From contig CAZEKY010000002.1 of assembly GCA_964512875.1 (NCBI GenBank), positions 1-45,216 on the forward strand: a DNA stretch of 45,216 bases, given 5' to 3'. The position numbers and the translations under genes were made by a program. Below the pieces are notes generated by a model. The model was not told the DNA's origin. It searched no databases and worked only from the letters and a program-made list of their open reading frames with translations. Shown piece after piece: positions 14,533 to 34,892 of the stretch (its first letter is position 1; each line of letters opens with the position of its first letter). The DNA comes from an uncultured Gammaproteobacteria bacterium (GTDB taxonomy: Bacteria > Patescibacteriota > Microgenomatia > UBA12405).

Positions 14533-15000
14533 TTATTTTTTAAGTGTTTCAAGAGCTTTTAGGGTAGCCCAAACATTTAACGATTTGTTTTTTGAACCAA
14601 CGATCTTACTAACGATATCTTGAATACCTGCTAATTCAACCACGGATCTAACGGGACCTCCAGCAATAAGACCACTTCCTTTTTTACCTGGTCTAATCAT
14701 AACAATCGCCCCTTTAAATTTTAAAGTGACTGATCCAGAAATAGTACCATCAACAATTGGAATAGTGATTAAACTTTTTTGAGCTTTAGAAATACCTTTT
14801 TGAATAGCATCAGCCACGCTTTTAGCTTTTCCTAAAGCCACTCCAACTCGGTTTTTCTTGTCACCAGAAACCACTAAAGCAGTAAAGTGAATTTGATTTC
14901 CACCTTTGGTTTTTTTAGATACTCTTTTAATTTGAACGACCTTATCAGTAAATTCACTGACTGGTCTTTCGTATTTTTGATATTTTTGATTATTATCCAT
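14533..15000 (-). CDS. rpsE: 30S ribosomal protein S5
   Basis: VVQIKRVSKKTKGGNQIHFTALVVSGD and GVALGKAKSVADAIQKG. Its stop is 2 nt from the rplO start, so no rpmD lies between them. Confidence 0.95.
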   Translation of the reverse strand: MDNNQKYQKYERPVSEFTDKVVQIKRVSKKTKGGNQIHFTALVVSGDKKNRVGVALGKAKSVADAIQKGISKAQKSLITIPIVDGTISGSVTLKFKGAIVMIRPGKKGSGLIAGGPVRSVVELAGIQDIVSKIVGSKNKSLNVWATLKALETLKK

Positions 15001-16301: not shown

Positions 16302-16487
16302 TTACCAACTAGCTTTTCTAACGCCAGGAAGCATGCCTTTGCTAGCCAATTGACGGAAACAAAGTCGGCAGATGCCGAATAAACGAATATAACCATGTGC
16401 ACGACCGCAAATTTTACATCGATTATGATGTCGACAACTATATTTTAATTTTTTGTCTTCTCTGACAATTTTTGCAGTAGTAGCCAT
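16302..16487 (-). CDS. rpsN: 30S ribosomal protein S14, type Z (zinc form)
   Basis: 61 aa with CKICGRAHG...CRLCFR and the C-terminal W. Confidence 0.93.
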
Positions 16488-24034: not shown

Positions 24035-26137
24035 TTAAGCATTAATAGCTTTAGTCAATTTCTCCTGAATATCTCGAGTGACTGGATCATAACGGCAAGG
24101 TTCCATATAAAAAGAACCACGGCCCTGAGTCAAGCTTCGAATAACAGTGGCATAGCCACCAACAGCTTCAAGTGGAATAAAGGCATGAATGGTGGTAAAA
24201 CCATGACTGTCTTCGGTTCCATTGATTTGTCCACGTCGAGAAGAAAGATCACCAATAACGGCTCCTAAAAATTCAGATGGAGTAGCAACTTCAAATTTCA
24301 TGATAGGTTCAATAATTAGAGGTTTAGCAGCCATAAAGGCATCTTTAATTGCATAAGCACCAGCTAATTTGAAAGCCATTTCTGAAGAATCAACTTCGTG
24401 GTAAGTACCGTCATAGACGGTAACCTTAATATCGGTGGCTGGAAAGCCAGCAATAATACCTTTTTGTAGCGTCTCTTTTACTCCTTTTTCGATAGCTGGA
24501 ATAAAATTGGCAGGGATAGCTCCACCTTTAACAGCGTTAACGAACTCATAACCCTCACCTCTTTCTTTTGGTTCCACTCTAATTTTACAGTGACCATATT
24601 GTCCGTGACCACCTGATTGATGAATATACTTACCTTCACCCTCAGTACTGGCAGAGATGGTTTCTCGATAAGCAACTTGTGGAGAACCGGTTTTTACGTT
24701 TACTCCAAATTCTCTTTTTAATCGGTCAACAATAATTTCAAGATAGAGTTCCCCCATTCCAGCAATAATAGTTTGACCAGTTTCTTGGTTGTAGCTAACT
24801 TTGAAAGTTGGATCTTCAATAGCCAGTCTATTTAAAGCTGCACCCATTTTTTCTTGGTCATCAGCAGTAGATGGTTCAATTGAGAGAGAAATAACTGGTT
24901 CAGCAAAATGAATTGGTGATAATGAGATGACACTATTGGCATCACAAAGAGTATCACCAGTAGTAGATTCTTTTAATCCAATACAGGCCACGATTTCTCC
25001 AGCAAATCCCTCTTCAAGACCTTCTCTTTTATCAGCATGCATTAAAAGCAAGCGACCAATACGCTCACTTTTACCCTTAGTAGTGTTGTAAACCTCAGAA
25101 CCGGCCTTTAAGGTTCCTGAGTAAACCCTAACATAGGAAAGAGTACCAACGTGAGGATCAGACTGTACTTTAAAAAGCAGAGCAGATAAGGGTTCTGTCT
25201 TAACAGATTTTCTAGTAATTACGTCATTATTCTCTGGATTGTAGCCTTCAATTGGAGGTAAATCCAATGGAGATGGCAAATAATCGATAATAGCATCTAA
25301 AATTGGATGGATTCCCTTATTTCTCCAAGAGGCACCACAATAAATTGGAAAAAGTTTTCGATCAATAGTCGCTTTTCTTAAGACAGCTTTTAATTCAGGT
25401 ACTGAAATTTCTTGATCATTTAAGAATTTTTCCATCAAAACTTCGTCTTCTCCAGAAATTAGCTCAACCATTTTGGCACGTGCAGCAAGTGCCTTTTCTC
25501 GATATTCATCAGTGACTGGTTTTCGAGTAAAGTCCATACCCTCCTCGTCTTTATCGTAGATAATCATATCCATGCTCATTAAATCGACTACACCCATAAA
25601 ATCATGTTCTTCTCCAATAGGAATAACAACAGGAACGACTGGAGCTCTTAGTTTTTCAGCAATACTATCAAGAGTTCCCTGGAAAGAGGCTCCAATTTTG
25701 TCCATTTTGTTAACAAAAGCAATACGAGGAACCCCATATTTATCAGCTTGTCTCCAAACAGTTTCAGATTGAGCTTGAACACCGGCATTTGCATCAAAAA
25801 TCATAATGGCTCCATCTAATACACGAAGTGATCTTTCAACTTCAGCGGTAAAATCGACATGCCCGGGAGTATCAATAATGTTTAGGCGACAATCCTTCCA
25901 AAAAGTAGTCACACAGGCTGACTGAATAGTAATACCTCTTTCTCTTTCTTGCATCATGGAATCAGTAGTGGTAGTTCCAGCATCGACTGAACCAATTTTG
26001 TGAATATTTCCGGTATAAAAAAGTAGTCGTTCAGTAGTGGTGGTTTTGCCACCGTCAATATGGGCGATAATACCAATATTTCGGACTTTATCCATAGGTA
26101 CATCACGATTTTTAGTAAGCTTTATTTGTTCTGCCAT
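24035..26137 (-). CDS. fusA: Elongation factor G
   Basis: AHIDGGKTTTTE, DTPGHVDF and NKMD. ATG 26137 (MAEQIKL...) is preferred. The track start 26176 is a TTG inside a hairpin. Confidence 0.97.
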   Translation of the reverse strand: MAEQIKLTKNRDVPMDKVRNIGIIAHIDGGKTTTTERLLFYTGNIHKIGSVDAGTTTTDSMMQERERGITIQSACVTTFWKDCRLNIIDTPGHVDFTAEVERSLRVLDGAIMIFDANAGVQAQSETVWRQADKYGVPRIAFVNKMDKIGASFQGTLDSIAEKLRAPVVPVVIPIGEEHDFMGVVDLMSMDMIIYDKDEEGMDFTRKPVTDEYREKALAARAKMVELISGEDEVLMEKFLNDQEISVPELKAVLRKATIDRKLFPIYCGASWRNKGIHPILDAIIDYLPSPLDLPPIEGYNPENNDVITRKSVKTEPLSALLFKVQSDPHVGTLSYVRVYSGTLKAGSEVYNTTKGKSERIGRLLLMHADKREGLEEGFAGEIVACIGLKESTTGDTLCDANSVISLSPIHFAEPVISLSIEPSTADDQEKMGAALNRLAIEDPTFKVSYNQETGQTIIAGMGELYLEIIVDRLKREFGVNVKTGSPQVAYRETISASTEGEGKYIHQSGGHGQYGHCKIRVEPKERGEGYEFVNAVKGGAIPANFIPAIEKGVKETLQKGIIAGFPATDIKVTVYDGTYHEVDSSEMAFKLAGAYAIKDAFMAAKPLIIEPIMKFEVATPSEFLGAVIGDLSSRRGQINGTEDSHGFTTIHAFIPLEAVGGYATVIRSLTQGRGSFYMEPCRYDPVTRDIQEKLTKAINA

Positions 26138-26205
26138 TTTAGTTAAAAATAATAAAACCGTTGCCAGTTTAGGCAACAGCGGATGGGATTATGATACCAT
26201 AAGGA

Positions 26206-27423
26206 ATGTCAAAGGTGAATAACAAAAAAATTGCAATTATTGGCGGTGGAATAGGGGGTTTAACTCTTGGATATAAACTAAGTAAACTGAAAAACAAGGT
26301 AACTGTTTTTGAAAGAGAAAAAAAGACAGGAGGAATGCTGTCAACTTTTAAACTCGAGAGTGAGGAAATTGAAAAACTCTATCATCACATATTCAAAACT
26401 GACAAAGAAATAATTGGATTAATTAAAGAGTTGCGATTGAGTAAAAAACTAAAATGGTATAAAAGTTCTGCAGCGATTTTTAGTGGAAACAGGTTTTACC
26501 CTTTCTTGGACGCAGTAGATCTTTTAAGCTTTGATAGGTTAAATCTGGTTGACAAAATTAGACTAGGTCTTGTTTATTTGTGGCTTAAATATGATAAAAA
26601 TTGGAAAAGGTATGAAAATATTAGCGCCACTGACTGGATGATAAAATGGGCCGGAAAAAAAGCTTATAAAACTATTTGGGAACCATTATTGATTGGTAAA
26701 TTTCACCATTATTATAAAGAGATATCCATGTCTTGGTTGTGGGCTAGAATTCATACGCGTGGCGCTTCAAAAAACCAAAAGGGGAAAGAGGTTTTAGGTT
26801 ACCTTGACGGCGGCTTTGGTCAAATAATTGATAACTTAAGTAAAAAAGTAAAAGTTGTTTATAGGGAAATTAAAAAGGCTGAAGATTTGAGTAAGGATTT
26901 TGATTTGGTAATTGATACTAGACCAGTCAAGTCGGTAAATTATCTTGGTGCTATTAATTTGGTTTTTAGTTCAAGTCAAAATTTAAGCAAGTATTACTGG
27001 CACAATATCAATGATAAAAAATCCCCTTTTGTGGTCTTAATCCAGCATGATAATTTACTAAAAGACAAAAGATATCAAGAAAAACATGTTTATTATTTGG
27101 GAGCATACCTTCCCCATAATCATAAATATTTTAAATATAGTGACGAAAAAATTGAAAAAGAATTTTTTTCTTATTTAAAGAAAATAATTAAAAATTTCAA
27201 TATAAATGAAATTTCTCAGAAAAAAGTTTTTCGTTTTAAATACGCTCAACATATAGTAACAAAAAATTACAAAGCTGCAGATTATAAATTGGGTAAAAAC
27301 AAATATCGTTTAAGTTTTGCTCAGGTTTATCCGGGAGATAGAGGTATTAATTTTGCAGTTAAAGAAGCAGATAAGTTAATTAAAATTATGCAAGATGATC
27401 ACAACAAAAAGTCTGGCAGATAA
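26206..27423 (+). CDS. FAD/NAD(P)-binding oxidoreductase (amine-oxidase / protoporphyrinogen-oxidase-like fold)
   Basis: N-terminal Rossmann motif KIAIIGGGIGGLTLGYKL...VTVFEREKKTGGM. The in-frame GTG at 26215 (8 nt after AAGGAA) is a better start than ATG 26206. The substrate cannot be told from sequence. Confidence 0.7.
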   Translation: MSKVNNKKIAIIGGGIGGLTLGYKLSKLKNKVTVFEREKKTGGMLSTFKLESEEIEKLYHHIFKTDKEIIGLIKELRLSKKLKWYKSSAAIFSGNRFYPFLDAVDLLSFDRLNLVDKIRLGLVYLWLKYDKNWKRYENISATDWMIKWAGKKAYKTIWEPLLIGKFHHYYKEISMSWLWARIHTRGASKNQKGKEVLGYLDGGFGQIIDNLSKKVKVVYREIKKAEDLSKDFDLVIDTRPVKSVNYLGAINLVFSSSQNLSKYYWHNINDKKSPFVVLIQHDNLLKDKRYQEKHVYYLGAYLPHNHKYFKYSDEKIEKEFFSYLKKIIKNFNINEISQKKVFRFKYAQHIVTKNYKAADYKLGKNKYRLSFAQVYPGDRGINFAVKEADKLIKIMQDDHNKKSGR

Positions 27424-28165
27424 AAAAATATTGGATTTAGTTGATAATAAAAAAATAGATAAAATATTTTTAGATATTGACTACACCGTCTATGATTTTT
27501 CCTTGGGTGATAATAGGGCAACAAAAAATTTAAACGAACAACACCCCCAACTTGGAGACGAGGTATCAAGAATATTTAAGATCATCTTAAAAGCAAAAAG
27601 ATCCCTTGCTTCTTTGACAATAAAAGAAAAAAAAGAATACCACCTTTTTTTAAACGAAATAAAAAGAATCCAAAAGACTGACAATTGTAAATTCTGGTCA
27701 AGAGAGACAATGATCATAATGGCAGCCAATAAAATAAAAATTGAAATTAACAAAGAAGATATTGTCAGATTGAGAAATATTTATTGGCAAAGTTTTTTGG
27801 ATAAGTGGCAAATTTATGCTGACGCAAAGATTTTTTTAGATAAAGTTAAAAGGGAAAAAATTGAAATTGTTTGGGTAACTGGAAGCGACTCAGTATTGAA
27901 AGTAAAAAATAATAAAAACGAAATTGAGCTAATTTATGATTCTAAATATTCGGCTGCCTTTAAAAAAAGAAGATTAACAAAACTTTTAGAAGAATACCCG
28001 GGAAAGCTAATCACTGGAGATCCACTAGAAAAACCAGAATTGTGGAAAATTATTTTTGAAAAAGACAAAAGAGGTAACTATTTAGTAATTGGAGATTCTT
28101 ACGAAAGTGATCTTAAAATAGCAGTAGAAATGGGAATAACAAGTGTTTTAATTAAAAGGAACTAA
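27395..28165 (+). CDS. HAD-superfamily hydrolase
   Basis: Motif I FLDIDYTV (DxDxT), motif II VTGSD, motif IV GDSYESD. It overlaps the upstream gene by 29 nt. Confidence 0.7.
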   Translation: MITTKSLADKKILDLVDNKKIDKIFLDIDYTVYDFSLGDNRATKNLNEQHPQLGDEVSRIFKIILKAKRSLASLTIKEKKEYHLFLNEIKRIQKTDNCKFWSRETMIIMAANKIKIEINKEDIVRLRNIYWQSFLDKWQIYADAKIFLDKVKREKIEIVWVTGSDSVLKVKNNKNEIELIYDSKYSAAFKKRRLTKLLEEYPGKLITGDPLEKPELWKIIFEKDKRGNYLVIGDSYESDLKIAVEMGITSVLIKRN

Positions 28166-29061
28166 AGGTTAGCGCTTTCTTTTTGTTTTTTAATTTCTTC
28201 TAAGCCTTCTTTTAGGGTTTTAAACTCTAAACCGAGATCTTTTGCCTTCTGATTAGAGGTAATCAACTTTTTTTGCCAGGGACGACTACCTTGAGGTTGA
28301 GAAGAAATAAAATCAGCTAAAGAACTTGGAGAGATTAACTTTTTATCAAGATTAAAGACAGATGCGACTTGCAGGCACATCTCATAAGGAGAACAAGAGG
28401 TTGAGCCAACAAGATGATAGATACCCTTATTTTGATGGTCTAAAAAGTAACAGAGAGCTTGAGCGATGTCGTCAATAAAGGTGTAGGTACAAATTTGATC
28501 TGAAAACATTTTTAACTCTTGATTATCTTGAAGCTTAGTTAGTACTTTTTTAATAATGTCAGGTTTTTTCTCAAAATTAGCACGATAGGGATAAGTAATT
28601 CTTGAAATATTAAAATTGTCATAATTAGAATCAGTAATGACCTTTTCCCCTAGATACTTGGTTTCTCCATACCACTCAATTGGAGAAACAGGATCTGACT
28701 CGATATAAGGAGTGTCTTTATTACCATCAAAAACAAAATCAGTAGAGATATAAATAAGATACTGATTGTATTTACGAGCAAGATCTAAAATATTTTTTGT
28801 TCCCTGCACGTTAAGCTGGTAACAAATTCCGCTATGATCTCCTTTTTGTTCCCAGGCAGCATTAGTGTCAGTAAAAGCAGCCAGATGTAAAATCGCAAAA
28901 GCATCTTTATTTTTTTCAAAGGCTTTGGCTAAATTTTCTTGATCAAGCAAATTCACTCCGGAATCTAGAGAAAAATCAACAAATTCATATTTGTCTTTTA
29001 ACAATTCGACAATACGACTACCAACTAACCCTGAAAGACCTGTGCCGATTATTTTTTTCAT
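28162..29061 (-). CDS. rfbD: dTDP-4-dehydrorhamnose reductase
   Basis: GTGLSGLVGSRI Rossmann motif and the ISTDFVFDG RmlD signature, downstream of rfbC. Its stop overlaps the convergent HAD stop. Confidence 0.82.
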   Translation of the reverse strand: MKKIIGTGLSGLVGSRIVELLKDKYEFVDFSLDSGVNLLDQENLAKAFEKNKDAFAILHLAAFTDTNAAWEQKGDHSGICYQLNVQGTKNILDLARKYNQYLIYISTDFVFDGNKDTPYIESDPVSPIEWYGETKYLGEKVITDSNYDNFNISRITYPYRANFEKKPDIIKKVLTKLQDNQELKMFSDQICTYTFIDDIAQALCYFLDHQNKGIYHLVGSTSCSPYEMCLQVASVFNLDKKLISPSSLADFISSQPQGSRPWQKKLITSNQKAKDLGLEFKTLKEGLEEIKKQKESANL

Positions 29062-29063
29062 AA

Positions 29064-29621
29064 TTAAAAAATTGGATTACTTTTTAACTGCTCAAGATTA
29101 GGCCAAAGCTTATCTTTATCTGATAACAACAAGTCAGTTTCTATTTTTGGCCAAGAGAAGGCAACTAAGGGGTCATTCCATAAAAGACCCCCTTCTGATT
29201 CTTTATTGTAAAAGTTGGAACATTTATACTGAAAATCAGCAATGTTAGAAAGGACTAAAAAAGCATGAGCAAAACCCTGAGGGATGTAAAATTGTTTTTT
29301 ATTTTCTTCAGATAAAAGTACCGAAAAAGATTGTCCAAAGGTTGGAGAATTTTGACGAAGATCAACAACAACGTCAAGAACCTCCCCCTGAGTACAACGA
29401 ACTAATTTATCTTGAGCAAAGGGTGGTTTTTGAAAATGAAAACCCCTTAATACTCCTTTTGAGGAGCGGGAGTGATTGTCTTGAACAAAGACAGTGGAAA
29501 TTCCATTGTCTGAAAAAAGTTTTTGATTGTAAGTTTCGAGGAAGAAACCTCGATCGTCTGGATAAACTGAAGGTTCGATTACAACTAATCCTTCAATATT
29601 GCCTCTGGTAAAAGTTGTCAT
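29064..29621 (-). CDS. rfbC: dTDP-4-dehydrorhamnose 3,5-epimerase
   Basis: DDRGFFLETYN and VQDNHSRSSKGVLRGFHFQ cupin motifs. Confidence 0.9.
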   Translation of the reverse strand: MTTFTRGNIEGLVVIEPSVYPDDRGFFLETYNQKLFSDNGISTVFVQDNHSRSSKGVLRGFHFQKPPFAQDKLVRCTQGEVLDVVVDLRQNSPTFGQSFSVLLSEENKKQFYIPQGFAHAFLVLSNIADFQYKCSNFYNKESEGGLLWNDPLVAFSWPKIETDLLLSDKDKLWPNLEQLKSNPIF

Positions 29622-30631
29622 TTTTTTATGTTTTGATTTAATTTAAGATAAAATTCTTCTGCTTCTTTTTTAGTTTCTAACCACCATGATTGATTTTGGG
29701 TATACCATTCAATTGTTTGCTTTAGGCCAGATTCTAAATCAAATTCTGGTTGCCAGCCTAATTCTTGATTGATTTTTGACCAATCGACAGAATAGTTATC
29801 ATGAGCAGGACGATCAGTGACATATTCCAAAGAAGATTCATCTTTGTTCATTAATTTTAAAATTAAGTTAACTAAATCCATATTACTCGTCCCCTTCTTT
29901 AGACCACCAATACAATAAGTCTGACCAATTTCACCCTTAAAAATTATTTGCTCGATAGCCCGACAATGATCTTGAACATGAAGCCAATCTCTAAAATTTA
30001 AACCTTGACCATATACTTTTATCTTTTGACCATCAAGTAGATTAGTAATTGATCTTGGAATCATTTTTTCAGGATGCTGATAGGGGCCATAATTATTGGA
30101 ACAATTACTAATGGTTACAGGAAGAGAGTAGGTTTTATAGAAAGACAAAACTAAATGATCAGATGAAGCTTTTGAGGCGGAATAAGGACTAGAAGGATCG
30201 TAAGGGGTTTTTTCGTTAAATTGTGTCAAAGAATCATTTATCAAAATAGTCCCATAGACTTCGTCGGTAGAGATATGATGAAAACGTGTCTTATATTTTT
30301 TAGCAGCCATTAACAGGTTATAAGTTCCCAATACATTAGTTTTTACAAAAAGAGAAGGATCATCAATTGATCGATCAACATGTGATTCTGCAGCAAAATG
30401 AACGATTAGTTCTACCTGAGAAACAATTTCATCAACTAATTTTTCATCTAAGATATCACCCTTAACAAATTGATAATTCGAATTATTTTCAAATTCAACT
30501 AAGTTTCTAGGATTGGCAGCATAAGTCATTTTGTCAAGATTAATAATAGAATCTTTAGGATATTTTTTAAACCAATACTTAATAAAATTTGAGCCGATAA
30601 AGCCAGAACCTCCAGTAACTAAAATTTTCAT
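29618..30631 (-). CDS. rfbB: dTDP-glucose 4,6-dehydratase
   Basis: MKILVTGGSGFIGSNF, the YSASKASSDHLV (YxxxK) motif and 337 aa. ATGA overlap with rfbC. Confidence 0.9.
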   Translation of the reverse strand: MKILVTGGSGFIGSNFIKYWFKKYPKDSIINLDKMTYAANPRNLVEFENNSNYQFVKGDILDEKLVDEIVSQVELIVHFAAESHVDRSIDDPSLFVKTNVLGTYNLLMAAKKYKTRFHHISTDEVYGTILINDSLTQFNEKTPYDPSSPYSASKASSDHLVLSFYKTYSLPVTISNCSNNYGPYQHPEKMIPRSITNLLDGQKIKVYGQGLNFRDWLHVQDHCRAIEQIIFKGEIGQTYCIGGLKKGTSNMDLVNLILKLMNKDESSLEYVTDRPAHDNYSVDWSKINQELGWQPEFDLESGLKQTIEWYTQNQSWWLETKKEAEEFYLKLNQNIKK

Positions 30632-30676
30632 ATGAGATGATTTTACTCTATTTAGGTAGCCATTATCAAGCGAAGT

Positions 30677-30731
30677 TAAAAAAAAAGACTCCCATTGTTT
30701 CGTTAAAAAAAACGAAGCAAATAGGAGTCTT
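30677..30731 (-). terminator. Long hairpin terminator after orphan ORF A
   Basis: The minus strand reads AAGACTCCTATTTGCTTCGTT-TTTTTT-AACGAAACAATGGGAGTCTT, followed by a run of about 9 T. The roughly 20-bp stem is imperfect. Confidence 0.6.
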
Positions 30732-30741
30732 GAGAAACAAG

Positions 30742-31167
30742 TTATTTTATTTGATATAAATAAATAATCCGTGCTGCCGGATAATCAGCGTCATCGAGAG
30801 GTGCATCTCGATAACTGTCATGAATTATAAAGAGAATCTCCTGAGGAGAAATTGACCTTATTTGTTTCCCAATAGAAAGAGCAGTTTGAACCACTTCCGT
30901 CGTACCATCAAGGTCCCCCTTGCAGTGATAACAAACGATCTTCTCTTGAAATTTTGTGATGATATTGTTATTTCGCACTAGATAGTACCGTTCATAATCC
31001 TCTATGACTACGCGGTTACCAGACTTCACCATCATAGTAGAAGGTGTAATCGACAAAAAATCATCAAGCGAACAGGTATTTACCCTTTTTGCATTAATAG
31101 TAGAACCTTTTGGCAGAACAGCGGAAATCAGATCTTCTAACTTCTCCTTTAACTCGATTTCTTTCAC
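30742..31167 (-). CDS. Orphan protein A (141 aa, no recognisable domain)
   Basis: GTG start at 31167 preceded by AAGGAGAG. No TM helix or signal peptide. Contains CYHC plus distant Cys and His residues. Followed by its own terminator. Confidence 0.6.
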   Translation of the reverse strand: MKEIELKEKLEDLISAVLPKGSTINAKRVNTCSLDDFLSITPSTMMVKSGNRVVIEDYERYYLVRNNNIITKFQEKIVCYHCKGDLDGTTEVVQTALSIGKQIRSISPQEILFIIHDSYRDAPLDDADYPAARIIYLYQIK

Positions 31168-31338
31168 TATTATCTCTCTCCTTTACTATTTTTTATGACA
31201 CAGAACTCTTCAAATAAAACTGTTTGTAAAAGTACACAAAATTATATTCAGCGATTGAAAATATTTTGTAGGGTATTTTAACATTAATGACTAAAAAACC
31301 AAAAAATAATAATAATTTTTAAAATAATTTTTCTGATA

Positions 31339-31737
31339 TTAATTTCTTTCTAAATAAATATTTGCTAAAACAGGGTTGTTACGACATTCCATGTGTGTAA
31401 CAGTCCACTTATTCTTTTTCAGTTCTAGCAAGTAGGGTCGAAGTACTTCTTCGACAGAAAAATCTCCACTTGCATGAACTCTCCCTTGAATTACAAAGGG
31501 TCTTTTTTGACCTTTTGAACTTTTAGAGTCTTCGATGAAAGAAGAATATATTCTGTATCTTCTATTTAGTTTTGGGTCATTAAATTTCACCCCCTTAATT
31601 CTCCTATATATCAATACAACATAACCTCTTACTTCTGTTTTAATATTACTTTCAGAATAATCATTAAAGACACTCTCGTTTGAGTCAATAATTTCTTTTA
31701 CAAACTCAATGAACAAGTGTGCATGTTCTTTAGTCAT
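31339..31737 (-). CDS. Orphan protein B (132 aa, basic, no recognisable domain)
   Basis: ATG 31737 lies 9 nt after AGGAGG; the track TTG at 31746 abuts the SD. My hand count is about 23 K/R against 17 D/E. A near-consensus promoter lies upstream. Confidence 0.6.
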   Translation of the reverse strand: MTKEHAHLFIEFVKEIIDSNESVFNDYSESNIKTEVRGYVVLIYRRIKGVKFNDPKLNRRYRIYSSFIEDSKSSKGQKRPFVIQGRVHASGDFSVEEVLRPYLLELKKNKWTVTHMECRNNPVLANIYLERN

Positions 31738-31799
31738 GCAATACAACCTCCTTTTTTTAAAGAACTTGTGTTTATCTAGTTAAAAATAAAAACTGAGGG

Positions 31800-31828
31800 A
31801 TTCTATCGAATATATTAAATTTTGTCAA
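31800..31828 (-). promoter_or_regulatory. Near-consensus sigma70 promoter for orphan B (TTGACA-17-TAGAAT)
   Basis: On the minus strand the -35 TTGACA is at 31828..31823 and the -10 TAGAAT at 31805..31800, immediately after the ORF C stop (31834). Confidence 0.55.
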
Positions 31829-31833
31829 AAATG

Positions 31834-32289
31834 TTATTTGTTTGTATCTACAATCTGGCGAATAATTTCGATTGTTTCACTGGAAGTGTTCGCTTTCTCT
31901 GTAACGTTTTTTTCTGGGTGATAATCATTTTCATATCTGGTTTGGTAATAATCAGGTAATTTTTCTACAGTAATTTTTTTTGCCAAAGGGATGATTCTTA
32001 ACGAATCCCCATTTTCAAAAGCTTTCATTTTTGAATCAAAAATTATAGCAATAGAATTACCCTTGTAATCAATAAGAGCTTCTACTGATTCACGATCAGA
32101 AGTTAGATCATAAAAATATTTTGTTAAAGGATCTGGACGACAAAAAGTTAATAGCTTGTTTTCTTTAATATATTCTAAATACTCAACAATGCCACTTTGA
32201 CTAAAAATCATTTTTGTTTCCTGAGCTGCACTTATTGGCTGCTTTGATTCTCTAAGACTTTCTTTGATCATGTGTTGACTAGCATACAA
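31834..32289 (-). CDS. Orphan protein C (125-151 aa, start uncertain, acidic C-terminus)
   Basis: The track start 32289 is a TTG. In-frame ATGs lie at 32271 (no SD) and 32211 (preceded by AGGAAA). I recognise no motif. Confidence 0.5.
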   Translation of the reverse strand: MYASQHMIKESLRESKQPISAAQETKMIFSQSGIVEYLEYIKENKLLTFCRPDPLTKYFYDLTSDRESVEALIDYKGNSIAIIFDSKMKAFENGDSLRIIPLAKKITVEKLPDYYQTRYENDYHPEKNVTEKANTSSETIEIIRQIVDTNK

Positions 32290-32364
32290 TCAATAAGAGA
32301 GAAAATCAAATTCTACAATATTGTGAAGAGTAAATATTTTTGATTATTTTTACTTTGTTGTTTT

Positions 32365-32393
32365 TTGACTTATTACAGATTACAGGATATAAT
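32365..32393 (+). promoter_or_regulatory. Near-consensus sigma70 promoter for orphan D (TTGACT-17-TATAAT)
   Basis: The -35 is at 32365-32370, the spacer is exactly 17 nt, and the -10 TATAAT is at 32388-32393. This predicts a leader of about 150 nt. Confidence 0.6.
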
Positions 32394-32458
32394 TTTACTA
32401 TCAAATACATAATTTTAGCTTGTATTTAGGCACTTTAAAATTAAATTTGACAGATAAA

Positions 32459-32518
32459 TTTGATGAATGGAAATTTGTTTTTTAGTAAAAGCTAAAAAGT
32501 AGATTCCCATTCATCAAA
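32459..32518 (+). promoter_or_regulatory. Structured 5' leader element of orphan D
   Basis: Perfect 12-bp stem TTTGATGAATGG (32459-32470) / CCATTCATCAAA (32507-32518), enclosing an inner TTTTAG/CTAAAA hairpin. AAATTTG(A) occurs three times, at 32443, 32456 and 32471. Confidence 0.45.
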
Positions 32519-32553
32519 GAGATGAAATAAGGGAGAAAGGTTGTTGATAGAAA

Positions 32554-32883
32554 ATGAAAGAAACAAAATGCGTAAACTTAATAGTTTTTTCGAATAGAAC
32601 GGCTTATATAGCCGTTAAACCTGGAAGAGCAAAGCTAGAAATTGATTTTTGCTCATCCATTTTATCTGGATCTTCACTCATAAAGGATATCGGAAATATC
32701 GCCTATTATGCCAATACGGCATATGTCAATATTGTCGAAGAAGACATGGATGATATTGTGTTACACCCGTATATGCCCTATCAAGGTAAAATTTATGCAG
32801 AAATGAAAGAATCTATTGACGATGTTGAAGATTCCGATGGTATTATTCCCTTAATCATTTCGTTTCATTGTCCAATTATTTAA
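32554..32883 (+). CDS. Orphan protein D (109 aa, strongly acidic, no recognisable domain)
   Basis: ATG start. My hand count is about 16 D/E against 9 K/R. Divergent from ORFs A-C and followed by a strong terminator. Confidence 0.55.
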   Translation: MKETKCVNLIVFSNRTAYIAVKPGRAKLEIDFCSSILSGSSLIKDIGNIAYYANTAYVNIVEEDMDDIVLHPYMPYQGKIYAEMKESIDDVEDSDGIIPLIISFHCPII

Positions 32884-32893
32884 TTTTAGCCAA

Positions 32894-32941
32894 CCCGGCA
32901 AAATAATAGCGTATTCGCTTTATTTTGACCGGGTTTTTTTT
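32894..32941 (+). terminator. Rho-independent terminator after orphan D
   Basis: CCCGGCAAAATAATAGCG-TATT-CGCTTTATTTTGACCGGG, a stem of about 17 bp with one bulge and one mismatch, followed by 8 T. Confidence 0.7.
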
Positions 32942-32943
32942 AA

Positions 32944-32969
32944 CAAAAATCCCCCGCTTTCACGAGGGA
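32944..32969 (-). terminator. Rho-independent terminator after the LytR_C gene
   Basis: The minus strand reads TCCCTCG-TGAAAG-CGGGGGA followed by TTTTTG, 20 nt past the stop at 32990. Confidence 0.6.
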
Positions 32970-32989
32970 CTTAAATTATTATTTAAAAG

Positions 32990-34330
32990 TTATTGAGCAG
33001 CAGGAGTAACCTTACTTAAATCCTGGCCAATAGTAAAAATAGCATCATAAGCTGATGCTTCTTTTAAATCTTGAGTATAGGTGGCAGGAAAGTCACTTTC
33101 TAGCTTAGATTCAAAATAAGCTGAAAAAGTAGCAGACTTTACTTGAACCGAATTTTTGGTAGCAATCTCTTTAGCATTTCCAACTGAAATATTTTTGAAA
33201 CCCATTTTGGTCAACATGGCCTTTACAGTAGCTGCTTGACCGTTGATATCTGTTCCATTTAAAACCTGAATTTTAATATCTTTATCAATCTCAATAATAG
33301 TTGGTGTTGGCGTTGGAGTTGAGGTTGGAGTCACAGTAACCTGATTATTTTCAGAAGTAGGACTCTCTATTTGAGAGCTGTCTTTTTTATTTGAAACAAA
33401 CCACATAATCATTGAAGCAATAACGGCAGTGAAAACAAAAACAGCCACTATTGGTAAAATATTTCTTTTTGTATTTTCCATTTTATTTTTTGATGAACTA
33501 ATATTGGTTGATGGTTTAATTATATCAATATTATTAGCTGTCGAGGAGTTGATAGCTCCAAGAACCGGTAAGGGTAAATTTGACGCTTTAGAAAGGCTTT
33601 GAGCAATCTGAGCCTCATCATAAAGGGTTTTGTTCATTTGAGTAGTAGAGAGAAGCTCTAAATCGTGATTTTCAGGCACATAAATCTTTTCTGTAATAGA
33701 AGAAAAGTAAAAATTAGAGTAATTGATGATTTTTTGAATATCAAGACTTGGTCCCTTAAGATTAACGGTTAAATATACGAAATTATCTTTTGATAACAAA
33801 AGAGTATATTCTTGGTCTTTAAGAGGATAAATTAAGAAAAATTCCTGTTTGTAAACTGAGGAAATAATGTTTGAAATAGCTGAAGAAATAGCAATAAACT
33901 TATCAATTACAACACCAATAGTTTCTAGGTTTTCTTTTAATTGGTCTAATCTTGGTTTATCGTAGATATAAGAACGAATAATGGTTTTGTCGGGAAGTTG
34001 AGTCAACTGATAGTCTAGTGCTTCTGGGTCAATATCAAAGTTAACCATACTAGTAGCCAGCCCAATTACTTCCTTCTTGTCAATGTTTTCTATTTTTGAA
34101 TCATAGGTAAAAGATTTAGTTACAACGATATCGTCAGGAACAAGAAGAGAAATAGATCCAAATTTATTTTGTTGAAAATATGATCTGAGAGAATCAAGCT
34201 GCTTATCGTTACATTTTTGCCAAAGATCCAAATCAAAACTAATAGTATTGTTTTCCTTTCGGTCAATGTAAAATTCAACACTTTTAGATCTTGGCCAGAT
34301 TACGAGTTTCGACTTAGAGAATAATGCCAT
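32990..34330 (-). CDS. Single-pass membrane protein with C-terminal LytR_C (LytR/CpsA/Psr C-terminal) domain
   Basis: 446 aa. TM helix ILPIVAVFVFTAVIASMIMWFV, a TPTSTPTPTPT linker, then IKIQVLNGTDINGQAATVKAMLTKMGFKNISVGNA, typical of LytR_C. The cytoplasmic ~280 aa vaguely resemble a PilM/FtsA-like half-domain; that part is low confidence. Confidence 0.7.
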   Translation of the reverse strand: MALFSKSKLVIWPRSKSVEFYIDRKENNTISFDLDLWQKCNDKQLDSLRSYFQQNKFGSISLLVPDDIVVTKSFTYDSKIENIDKKEVIGLATSMVNFDIDPEALDYQLTQLPDKTIIRSYIYDKPRLDQLKENLETIGVVIDKFIAISSAISNIISSVYKQEFFLIYPLKDQEYTLLLSKDNFVYLTVNLKGPSLDIQKIINYSNFYFSSITEKIYVPENHDLELLSTTQMNKTLYDEAQIAQSLSKASNLPLPVLGAINSSTANNIDIIKPSTNISSSKNKMENTKRNILPIVAVFVFTAVIASMIMWFVSNKKDSSQIESPTSENNQVTVTPTSTPTPTPTIIEIDKDIKIQVLNGTDINGQAATVKAMLTKMGFKNISVGNAKEIATKNSVQVKSATFSAYFESKLESDFPATYTQDLKEASAYDAIFTIGQDLSKVTPAAQ

Positions 34331-34336
34331 GGTTAT

Positions 34337-34365
34337 ATTATAGCAAAAAACAACTATGAGTTGAA
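34337..34365 (-). promoter_or_regulatory. Putative extended -10 promoter of the LytR_C gene (TTCAAC-17-TGCTATAAT)
   Basis: The -10 TATAAT is at 34342..34337 with TGC immediately upstream, and the -35 is at 34365..34360. Only 6 nt separate the -10 from ATG 34330. Confidence 0.45.
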
Positions 34366-34393
34366 TACAAAAAACGCCCCAATGATGGGGCGC
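34365..34393 (-). terminator. Rho-independent terminator after rpsG
   Basis: The minus strand reads AAGCGCCCC-ATCATT-GGGGCG followed by TTTTTTG. Confidence 0.7.
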
Positions 34394-34409
34394 TTAATAT
34401 CATTAAAAA

Positions 34410-34892
34410 TTACCAGCGCAAATGAGCAAAAGCCTTGTTGGCATCAGCCATTCTTTCAACCTCAATTCTTTTGTTTACCGCGACTCCTTCATTATTAAGT
34501 GCGGCAGTTAACTCAGAAACTAATTTTTCAGCAAAAGTGTGAAATTGTTTGTTTGGTTTTGAGCGAGCAGCATTAATCATCCATCTAAGAGCCAAAGAGT
34601 TTTGACGATTGCCACGAACTGGAGTAGGAACCTGATAGACAGCACCACCAATTCTTCGTGGTTTAACTTCAATTTTAGGTCTAATATTTTCAAGTGCACG
34701 ATCTAAAACGTCTAAAACTTCCTCTTTTGGAAATTGTTTTTTTATTAAATCAAGAGCGGCATAAACTTGTTTTTCAGCAACAGTTCTTTTGCCATCTCTC
34801 ATACAAGCATTGATGATTTTACTGACAGTAATGTTGCCATAGATAGTGTCTGGTAGGACTTCTCTGGTTTTATTGATTCCTTTTCTGGACAT
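34410..34892 (-). CDS. rpsG: 30S ribosomal protein S7
   Basis: 160 aa with MSRKG...DGKRTVAEKQVY and the C-terminal AFAHLRW. Confidence 0.96.
   Translation of the reverse strand: MSRKGINKTREVLPDTIYGNITVSKIINACMRDGKRTVAEKQVYAALDLIKKQFPKEEVLDVLDRALENIRPKIEVKPRRIGGAVYQVPTPVRGNRQNSLALRWMINAARSKPNKQFHTFAEKLVSELTAALNNEGVAVNKRIEVERMADANKAFAHLRW

Follow-up and report, generated by a model that had tools for sequence, protein, structure and literature searches.

Between a gene for a LytR_C-domain protein and rfbB on contig CAZEKY010000002.1 of assembly GCA_964512875.1 (all 45,216 nt of the stretch analysed are hereafter called the window), we find a 2.1-kb accessory cassette at positions 30742-32883. 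Judged from sequence, its four open reading frames (ORFs), A to D, are real genes for four unrelated, cytoplasmic, lineage-restricted small proteins of new families. We recognise two full-length haplotypes of it, and probably a third, all of them ancient and syntenic and set in near-identical genomic backgrounds, and the explanation that best fits the whole, which we offer tentatively, is a replacement-type islet of ancient alleles that carries a conflict-type module. An anchor search with the 446-aa LytR_C-domain protein identifies the host as a member of Candidatus Shapirobacteria (Patescibacteria, or Candidate Phyla Radiation, CPR). Window positions are used throughout, with the strand of each ORF given as - or +; labels L001-L064 denote related loci and P00xx protein clusters.

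The age of the haplotypes emerges from comparison with L011, a 21-kb contig whose rpoC, rpsL, rpsG, LytR_C and rfbBCD products are 93-100% identical to those of the window and whose flanking DNA is 94-98% identical. L011 has, between LytR_C and rfbB, a set of four small genes whose order and orientation are those of the window; their products share 60% (D), 39% (C), 35% (B) and 32% (A; given as 35% in a separate comparison) identity with the window proteins. Synonymous divergence (dS) between the two contigs is 0.02 in rpoC, 0.10 in rpsL, 0.14 in rpsG and 0.08 in codons 1-300 of the LytR_C gene. It rises to 0.51 in codons 301-446 of that gene, with a ratio of non-synonymous to synonymous divergence (dN/dS) of 0.06, reaches 1.7 in D, 2.7 in C, 1.4 in B and 1.5 in A, and then falls through rfbB (0.41, dN/dS 0.05), rfbC (0.26) and rfbD (0.20) to 0.17 in g256. 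By this measure the cassette has diverged further than change in place could have carried it at the neutral rate that the flanks imply.

The DNA identity profile against L011 locates the edges of the diverged DNA. Identity is 97.7% in the N-terminal part of LytR_C and 84.8% in its C-terminal part, 98.1% in the 106-nt spacer holding the convergent terminators of LytR_C and D, 53-61% in the coding sequences (CDSs) of C, B and A, and 88.9% from the A terminator to the rfbB start. The D promoter and leader (32365-32540) are 93.8% identical, though the D CDS reaches only 68.1%. Divergence ends at CDS ends at four junctions, namely the 5′ and 3′ ends of D and the 3′ end of A in L011, and the 3′ end of A in L008. 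The diverged C-B-A block has its left breakpoint at the -35 box of the D promoter and its right-hand boundary at the A terminator, and the two islands of divergence (the D CDS and C-B-A) are split by a 180-nt segment at background identity. The terminator spacer is itself a conserved island between the diverged C-terminal part of LytR_C (85%) and D (68%), and it could serve as a recombination anchor.

Two short contigs extend the comparison. L010 holds a C-B pair whose products share 39-41% identity with the window proteins and 33-37% with those of L011, and L008 holds an A allele 56% identical to that of the window, followed by the same near-identical terminator; together they probably represent a third haplotype. 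The A terminator is thus near-identical in the window, L011 and L008 despite A alleles that are 35-56% identical. Across haplotypes at 32-60% protein identity, ORF lengths are similar, indels preserve the frame and, at dN/dS of 0.16-0.47, each allele is under purifying selection; the charge pattern is kept in every haplotype, A, C and D being acidic and B basic or neutral. The proposal that the genes belong together, made from the window alone, is borne out by this co-occurrence: all four are present in L011, and C and B are paired in L010.

The four products (Table 1) agree with public gene calls of 141 (A), 132 (B), 145 (C) and 109 aa (D). For C, translation from the 145-aa methionine is supported because homology among the three deep haplotypes begins at that residue. 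Near its C-terminus, A has a conserved HDSY-D-DD motif, and in D residues C6, C33, H105 and C106 are invariant. The highest 19-residue Kyte-Doolittle mean across A-D is 1.13 and the N-termini are charged; by this hydropathy measure none of the four has a transmembrane helix or signal peptide. No search of A-D or their diverged alleles against Pfam, PADLOC, PHROGs and NCBIfam came close to a cut-off; the matches were all sub-threshold and mutually inconsistent. The best PADLOC-DB v2 scores, E 0.05 to Cas10b for D and E 0.007 to Csm3 for the L011 B allele, cover short stretches and do not recur from one allele to another. A profile search of PDB sequences with A-D likewise returned nothing (best for C, E 0.4 or worse), and paralogy among the four was rejected by BLASTP, hidden Markov model (HMM) comparison and hhalign.

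Structure prediction followed by Foldseek separates A from B. With a five-sequence alignment, AlphaFold2 gives A a confident model (predicted local distance difference test score, pLDDT, 83.5; predicted template modelling score, pTM, 0.78) comprising an N-terminal helix and then about nine strands. This model has no Foldseek neighbour in PDB (best E 0.016, query-normalised template modelling score, TM, ≤0.29) or in BFVD (TM ≤0.35), and assignment of A to the cupins (sugar isomerase) or another known fold is unsupported by these searches. The B model is poor (pLDDT 52.7) and unusable for this purpose; its Foldseek matches to KCTD H1, GFRP and mitoribosomal assembly factors, at E 0.011 or worse and TM ≤0.43, were discarded.

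The codon usage of A is atypical, with G+C content at third codon positions (GC3) of 0.345 against 0.232 ± 0.035 for 48 window genes and an index resembling the codon adaptation index of 0.454, below the lowest value of the window genes. The GC3 of 0.345 recurs in the L008 A allele and not in that of L011, a mild indication that this allele lineage was imported. Wholly within A, on the opposite strand, lies a 64-aa ORF (31004-31198, +) that is called as a gene in public strain-contig annotations and is probably spurious.

Contigs from other samples at about 98% DNA identity carry the same four genes in the same place. Among these strains, the ratio of non-synonymous to synonymous polymorphism (pN/pS) is 0.11-0.19 for A, 0.30-0.35 for B and 0.25-0.33 for C, while D has no synonymous and one or two non-synonymous changes, too few to judge. 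In L006, B is 88% identical in DNA against 99.4-99.5% for D and rfbB, and in L003, C and B are near-identical to the window and A differs; on these patterns, recombination occurs within the cassette.

The cassette occupies a slot that is variable in the wider clade. The order rpoC-rpsL-rpsG-LytR_C-slot-rfbB-rfbC-rfbD-(HAD-like)-FAD/NAD oxidoreductase-fusA-tuf recurs in related genome and metagenome loci, and at 24035-34892 the str operon is split between rpsG and fusA by a conserved block of about 8 kb, an order found in about 50 related loci. Because this order recurs, the interruption is ancestral to the clade and not recent cargo. The earlier note on this DNA had placed horizontally acquired genes in a ribosomal neighbourhood; the immediate neighbours are instead the LytR_C-domain gene and rfbB inside the split operon, and the surrounding insertion (LytR_C, rfbBCD, the HAD-like gene and the FAD oxidoreductase gene) belongs to the clade's ancestral arrangement. 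What holds of that description is an accessory module whose slot varies between species and whose four genes recur in order in L011.

LytR_C and rfbB flank the slot in all strain contigs as well as in the 32 related loci in which both flanks are visible. Among these 32, the slot measures ≤130 nt in 14; the other 18 carry unrelated cargo of 0.2-3.1 kb. In other species the cargo comprises 37 ORFs, which group into about 24 families and mostly run opposite to the flanks; BLASTP, HMM and hhalign comparisons detect no homologue of A-D among them. Neither an integrase or transposase nor an att-like repeat of the cassette is present in 30500-33100, and the region has no direct repeat longer than 18 nt and no repeats like those of diversity-generating retroelements or type III toxin-antitoxin (TA) systems. 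A 16-nt inverted repeat common to the A and D terminators is poly-A/T low complexity and was not taken as a cassette boundary signal.

Table 1 Coordinates and properties of the cassette genes, their signals and the neighbouring genes
Feature	Positions	Strand	Details
ORF A	30742-31167	-	141 aa; GTG start; isoelectric point (pI) 5.7, acidic
ORF B	31339-31737	-	132 aa; ATG at 31737; pI 9.5, basic
ORF C	31834-32271	-	145 aa; ATG at 32271; pI 5.3, acidic
ORF D	32554-32883	+	109 aa; pI 4.6, acidic; divergent from C-B-A
Promoter-like site of B	31828-31800	-	TTGACA-17-TAGAAT, 11/12 match
Promoter-like site of D	32365-32393	+	TTGACT-17-TATAAT, 11/12 match
Shine-Dalgarno (SD) sequence of A		-	AAGGAG 10 nt before GTG; read from sequence
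SD sequence of B		-	AGGAGG 9 nt before ATG; read from sequence
Putative intrinsic terminator after A	30678-30731	-	hairpin 30685-30731 plus U-tract; fold z -6.78
Putative intrinsic terminator after D	32892-32943	+	hairpin plus U-tract; fold z -6.79
Putative LytR_C gene terminator	32941-32972	-	convergent with D terminator; z -4.38
Convergent terminator spacer	32884-32989		106 nt
D leader hairpin	32459-32518	+	27-bp near-perfect inverted repeat in 5′ leader of about 160 nt
rfbB promoter-like site	30669-30640	-	just downstream of A terminator; conserved in L011
LytR_C-domain gene (left flank)	32990-34330	-	446-aa membrane protein, C-terminal LytR_C domain (Pfam E 2.2e-8)
rfbB (right flank)	29618-30631	-	dTDP-glucose 4,6-dehydratase; own promoter-like site
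HAD-like hydrolase gene	27395-28165	+	member of str-operon insertion
FAD/NAD-binding oxidoreductase gene	26206-27423	+	amine-oxidase-like or possibly Glf-like; member of str-operon insertion

Promoter and terminator calls are sequence-based. The promoter-like sites of B and D are the only two 11/12 matches in 3 kb, where dinucleotide shuffles yield a mean of 0.21 such sites (P about 0.013 for at least two), and both lie at the same positions in L011. The B hexamers and their spacing are invariant in the window, L011 and L010, the surrounding DNA being otherwise unalignable. C is without a clear SD sequence or recognisable promoter, and in both the window and L011 strong promoters are missing in front of A and of C. 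Between C and B lie 96 nt, which include the conserved B promoter, and between B and A 171 nt; neither spacer contains a terminator-like fold (z 0.2 after C, -0.8 after B). The layout is probably D alone plus (C)-B-A ending at a single terminator, giving two or three transcripts (D; possibly C; B-A). Because rfbB has its own promoter-like site past the A terminator, the cassette occupies a gap that is transcriptionally insulated.

The D leader, with a minimum free energy of -39.6 kcal/mol (z -5.35), has no match in Rfam at gathering thresholds or E ≤1 apart from chance hairpin matches. Its hairpin is single copy and found only in loci carrying D, which excludes a dispersed repeat, and an intrinsic attenuator was rejected because no U-tract follows the hairpin. 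An RNase III site, a stabiliser or an operator are candidate roles.

These results settle much of what the earlier note had read from the window by eye. The four ORFs exist where it had placed them, its failure to assign a family holds against Pfam, PADLOC, PHROGs, NCBIfam and PDB profiles, and the lack of transmembrane helices and signal peptides is borne out by hydropathy and the charged N-termini. The two promoters it had drawn before B and D recur in L011, its long hairpins after A and D fold with z of about -6.8 each, and its SD sequences before A and B can be specified. Separate transcription of every ORF, by contrast, is not borne out at C and B, which have no terminator-like structure behind them, or at A and C, which have no strong promoter in front. 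The idea of four independent, moron-like units accordingly applies to D only, B and A sharing one terminator. An undescribed module survives, strengthened by synteny across deep haplotypes: the proteins fall in no housekeeping family, the genes co-occur and purifying selection is evident. None of the outcomes that the note had named as refuting it was observed.

We infer that the old alleles have been kept by balancing or frequency-dependent selection, because divergence is confined to the CDSs and the promoter, leader and terminator spacers stay at background identity. Exchange by homologous recombination in the conserved flanks is suggested by the mostly synonymous rise in both boundary genes (dN/dS 0.05-0.06), as described for replacement flexible genomic islands, which exchange by homologous recombination and whose boundary genes show mostly synonymous peaks with low dN/dS (Lopez-Perez, Martin-Cuadrado & Rodriguez-Valera 2014, PMC4033161). 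With low confidence, and by analogy, we suggest that A-D may form an allele-specific conflict module, either anti-phage (abortive infection) or toxin/immunity-like, since the co-divergence of adjacent genes into deep specificity groups is typical of interacting, co-adapted products and since CPR bacteria largely lack CRISPR-Cas (PMC4742961).

Judged by its signals, D is probably expressed alone, from its conserved promoter through the 160-nt hairpin leader to its own terminator, and (C)-B-A probably forms a second unit that has a further conserved promoter in front of B and ends at the single terminator behind A. In a conflict module the products would act inside the cell as an allele-specific, co-adapted set, with basic B perhaps as the effector, A and C, both acidic, as its partners and D under separate control. 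The dynamics follow those of known replacement islets and minimal mobile elements; what is new is the cargo, and alleles that are homologous and yet ancient are unusual. Whether this amounts to an unprecedented allele-specific intracellular conflict or self-recognition system of CPR bacteria, with four new families, at least one new fold, ancient specificity groups and cassette exchange, we regard as doubtful.

CPR (Patescibacteria) genomes are tiny, with mostly unannotated genes, and known defence systems are rare in them. For the question of how these bacteria cope with phages and competitors, the locus is a small, sharply bounded candidate: four co-inherited orphan proteins with alleles far older than the genomes that carry them. 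Should balancing selection be the cause, the proteins would be targets or agents of biological conflict, and cognate versus non-cognate haplotypes a natural experiment on their function. The locus also shows that replacement-type islet dynamics, known for the large surface-glycan islands of free-living aquatic bacteria, occur at a 2-kb scale in an ultra-small bacterium, inside its split str operon. A conflict system here would mean a compact defence or incompatibility module in a lineage largely without CRISPR-Cas; if the proteins are mundane, the locus is a well-characterised hypervariable slot only.

Several observations weigh against selection-maintained alleles and a conflict role. The Pfam, PADLOC, PHROGs and NCBIfam scans detect no toxin, antitoxin, nuclease, ATPase or DNA-binding domain in A-D, and spacers of 96 and 171 nt with an internal promoter are unlike classical TA pairs. 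L011 is the one full-length alternative haplotype, and the haplotypes come from different samples, while balancing selection requires coexistence in one population. Cassette dN/dS against L011 is 0.16-0.47, with dS saturated, so these values are rough. Among window-type strains, the synonymous diversity of C, B and A (0.10) is not above that of g405 (0.13). A, C and D appear narrowly distributed in a word-indexed search that failed to recover even their L011 alleles. Finally, the slot elsewhere holds five NUDIX genes, an rfbA-like nucleotidyl transferase gene (E 3e-61), an NDP-hexose 2,3-dehydratase gene and genes for small membrane proteins and orphans, which points to an envelope-glycan theme and not defence; PADLOC on 32 slot ORFs from other species gave no meaningful match.

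A reading that dispenses with both balancing selection and conflict takes A-D as fast-turnover, lineage-restricted genes of mundane regulatory or structural role, the deep alleles being imports from unsampled sister lineages that entered by recombination in the conserved flanks. The distribution of the genes accords with it. An exhaustive HMMER search of B against 1.84 billion representatives recovers two other clusters only (P0023 and P0024), one of them represented on L011, and the word-indexed protein search with A-D recovers strain variants and P0021 only. No homologue of A-D is present in 50 related loci; a JGI metagenome scan anchored on LytR_C gave 37 loci, all without them. Sister species, whose LytR_C is 70-73% identical, lack A-D altogether; an exact look-up of the window rfbB product returned no match. 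These searches place the cassette in a single Shapirobacteria species complex, with no homologues beyond a handful of contigs. The provenance of the haplotypes from different samples and the recombination among strains (B of L006 at 88% against flanks at 99.5%) fit imports as well. Neutral imports, however, would not be expected to have divergence boundaries at CDS ends at four junctions, and it also weighs against this reading that all four genes are kept in order under purifying selection in every haplotype. We consider this account possible, if rather unlikely.

The main functional rival to a conflict role is that A-D are envelope-glycan accessory genes, the variable part of a surface-polysaccharide locus, whose products modify, regulate or chaperone glycan synthesis and whose diversity stems from phage receptor variation, as it does in O-antigen replacement islands. 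The cassette does lie between the LytR_C-domain gene and rfbBCD, slot cargo elsewhere includes the rfbA-like NTP transferase, the NDP-hexose 2,3-dehydratase and the five NUDIX genes, and the synonymous peaks at the boundaries agree with the ones found in replacement islands, whose typical products are exposed structures (PMC4033161). Against this stand the products themselves: A-D have no transmembrane helix or signal peptide and no glycosyltransferase, acyltransferase, cupin or epimerase match in Pfam or NCBIfam, and the confident A model matches no sugar-enzyme fold in PDB. The haplotypes are, moreover, homologous and syntenic and not different gene sets. On balance we find an envelope-glycan role unlikely.

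The earlier note had suggested horizontally acquired cargo such as phage-derived accessory genes, TA or abortive-infection pairs, or orphan immunity genes against polymorphic toxins. In its strongest form the suggestion makes the cassette what is left of a prophage or another mobile element that carried moron-type cargo, for which one may cite the promoter and terminator owned by D, the atypical codon usage of A and the insertion sequence (IS) at the locus in L009. The region nevertheless has no integrase, phage structural or replication gene or att-like repeat. PHROGs, IMG/VR pattern scans and tblastn against INPHARED and PLSDB detect no phage or plasmid relative of A-D, and the flanks are clade-conserved chromosomal genes in about 50 loci, leaving a mobile-element remnant very improbable. 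The other two suggestions fare no better in these searches. No TA or defence family matches, PADLOC being negative for the window proteins and their diverged alleles alike; no Pfam immunity family matches and no large toxin-like ORF lies nearby. A literature search on Shapirobacteria and hypervariable found no paper.

That the ORFs are spurious or decaying, as the lack of a recognisable SD sequence or promoter for C and the few strain changes in D might hint, is effectively refuted by pN/pS of 0.11-0.35 for A, B and C, by frames that stay open through frame-preserving indels at 32-60% identity (which carries the argument for D) and by the confident fold prediction for A.

Comparison with characterised systems places the cassette closest in behaviour to replacement islands and minimal mobile elements. 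Like replacement islands, it has a fixed position between conserved genes in all relatives, with the content differing or the slot empty; synonymous peaks at its boundaries (LytR_C dS 0.51, rfbB 0.41); no mobility genes; and surface-glycan genes beside it. Unlike these islands of tens of kb, it spans 2.1 kb and four genes, its cargo is small cytoplasmic orphans and not glycosyltransferases or exposed structures, and its versions are homologous and syntenic (32-60% identity), with two islands of divergence, and not unrelated gene sets. The minimal mobile elements (MMEs) of Neisseria were reportedly described by Saunders and Snyder in 2002 (cited in PMC1538595). The concept comes from a pathogen that is naturally transformable, and the genes that replace one another in MMEs are as a rule unrelated, for example restriction-modification or TA genes. 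The cassette resembles them as a short insert between a fixed conserved gene pair, with cargo that varies or is absent and exchange probably via flanking homology; it differs in that its versions are related.

Staphylococcal agrBDC and Bacillus comQXP are pherotype loci whose adjacent genes have co-diverged through co-adapted, interacting products. The cassette likewise has adjacent genes in deep allelic groups with sharp boundaries in conserved DNA, but it encodes neither a membrane sensor kinase nor a peptide precursor nor a processing enzyme, and its four products are soluble. With type II TA and abortive-infection pairs it shares small adjacent genes, a contrast of acidic and basic products, variability between strains and an accessory slot. 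Type II TA genes overlap or lie less than about 30 nt apart, in contrast to the 96-171 nt, the internal promoter and the four genes found here, and A-D have no detected toxin or antitoxin domain and no helix-turn-helix, ribbon-helix-helix or AbrB fold.

Phage morons are promoter-ORF-terminator insertions in prophages. D is such a self-contained promoter-leader-ORF-terminator unit, but there is no prophage context or phage homologue, and by the sequence-based calls B has a promoter only, A a terminator only and C neither. Unlike defence islands, the cassette has envelope and sugar genes as neighbours, and the slot ORFs scanned in other species gave no meaningful PADLOC match. Unlike immunity genes of polymorphic toxins, it follows a variable upstream C-terminal part that is an ordinary LytR_C domain with dN/dS of 0.06. 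A target of a diversity-generating retroelement was rejected, the region having no direct repeat longer than 18 nt and the divergence spanning whole CDSs.

Some minor features of the cassette and its surroundings deserve record. In L009 (1-735), an IS-type transposase gene whose N-terminus is HTH_32/HTH_28 stops precisely at the -35 box of the D promoter, where the haplotype breakpoint that separates the C-B-A block from the D leader also falls; the IS, truncated by the contig end, is a secondary insertion and not part of the cassette. The C-D spacer of L001, L006 and L009 has, at about 32340, an AT-rich segment of 53 nt that the window lacks; it lies immediately upstream of the putative C promoter region.

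In sister species (slot ORFs of L012, L029, L033, L034 and L060), the commonest slot cargo is a NUDIX-domain protein of about 230 aa. An orphan family of 121-141 aa occupies the slot in L012, L029 and L032, and short proteins with a hydrophobic C-terminal stretch occur in L012-L014. Nearly all of these ORFs are oriented opposite to the flanks, and they may belong to a different module that recurs.

Farther along the split operon, L001 and L002 carry an extra 427-aa orphan gene with no Pfam match between the oxidoreductase gene and fusA (15034-16317 in L001). In L001, the DNA corresponding to window 26190-26265 is duplicated (14904-14979 and 16367-16442), forming a 76-nt direct repeat around a 1.39-kb insert, and the empty site lies at window 26177-26265.

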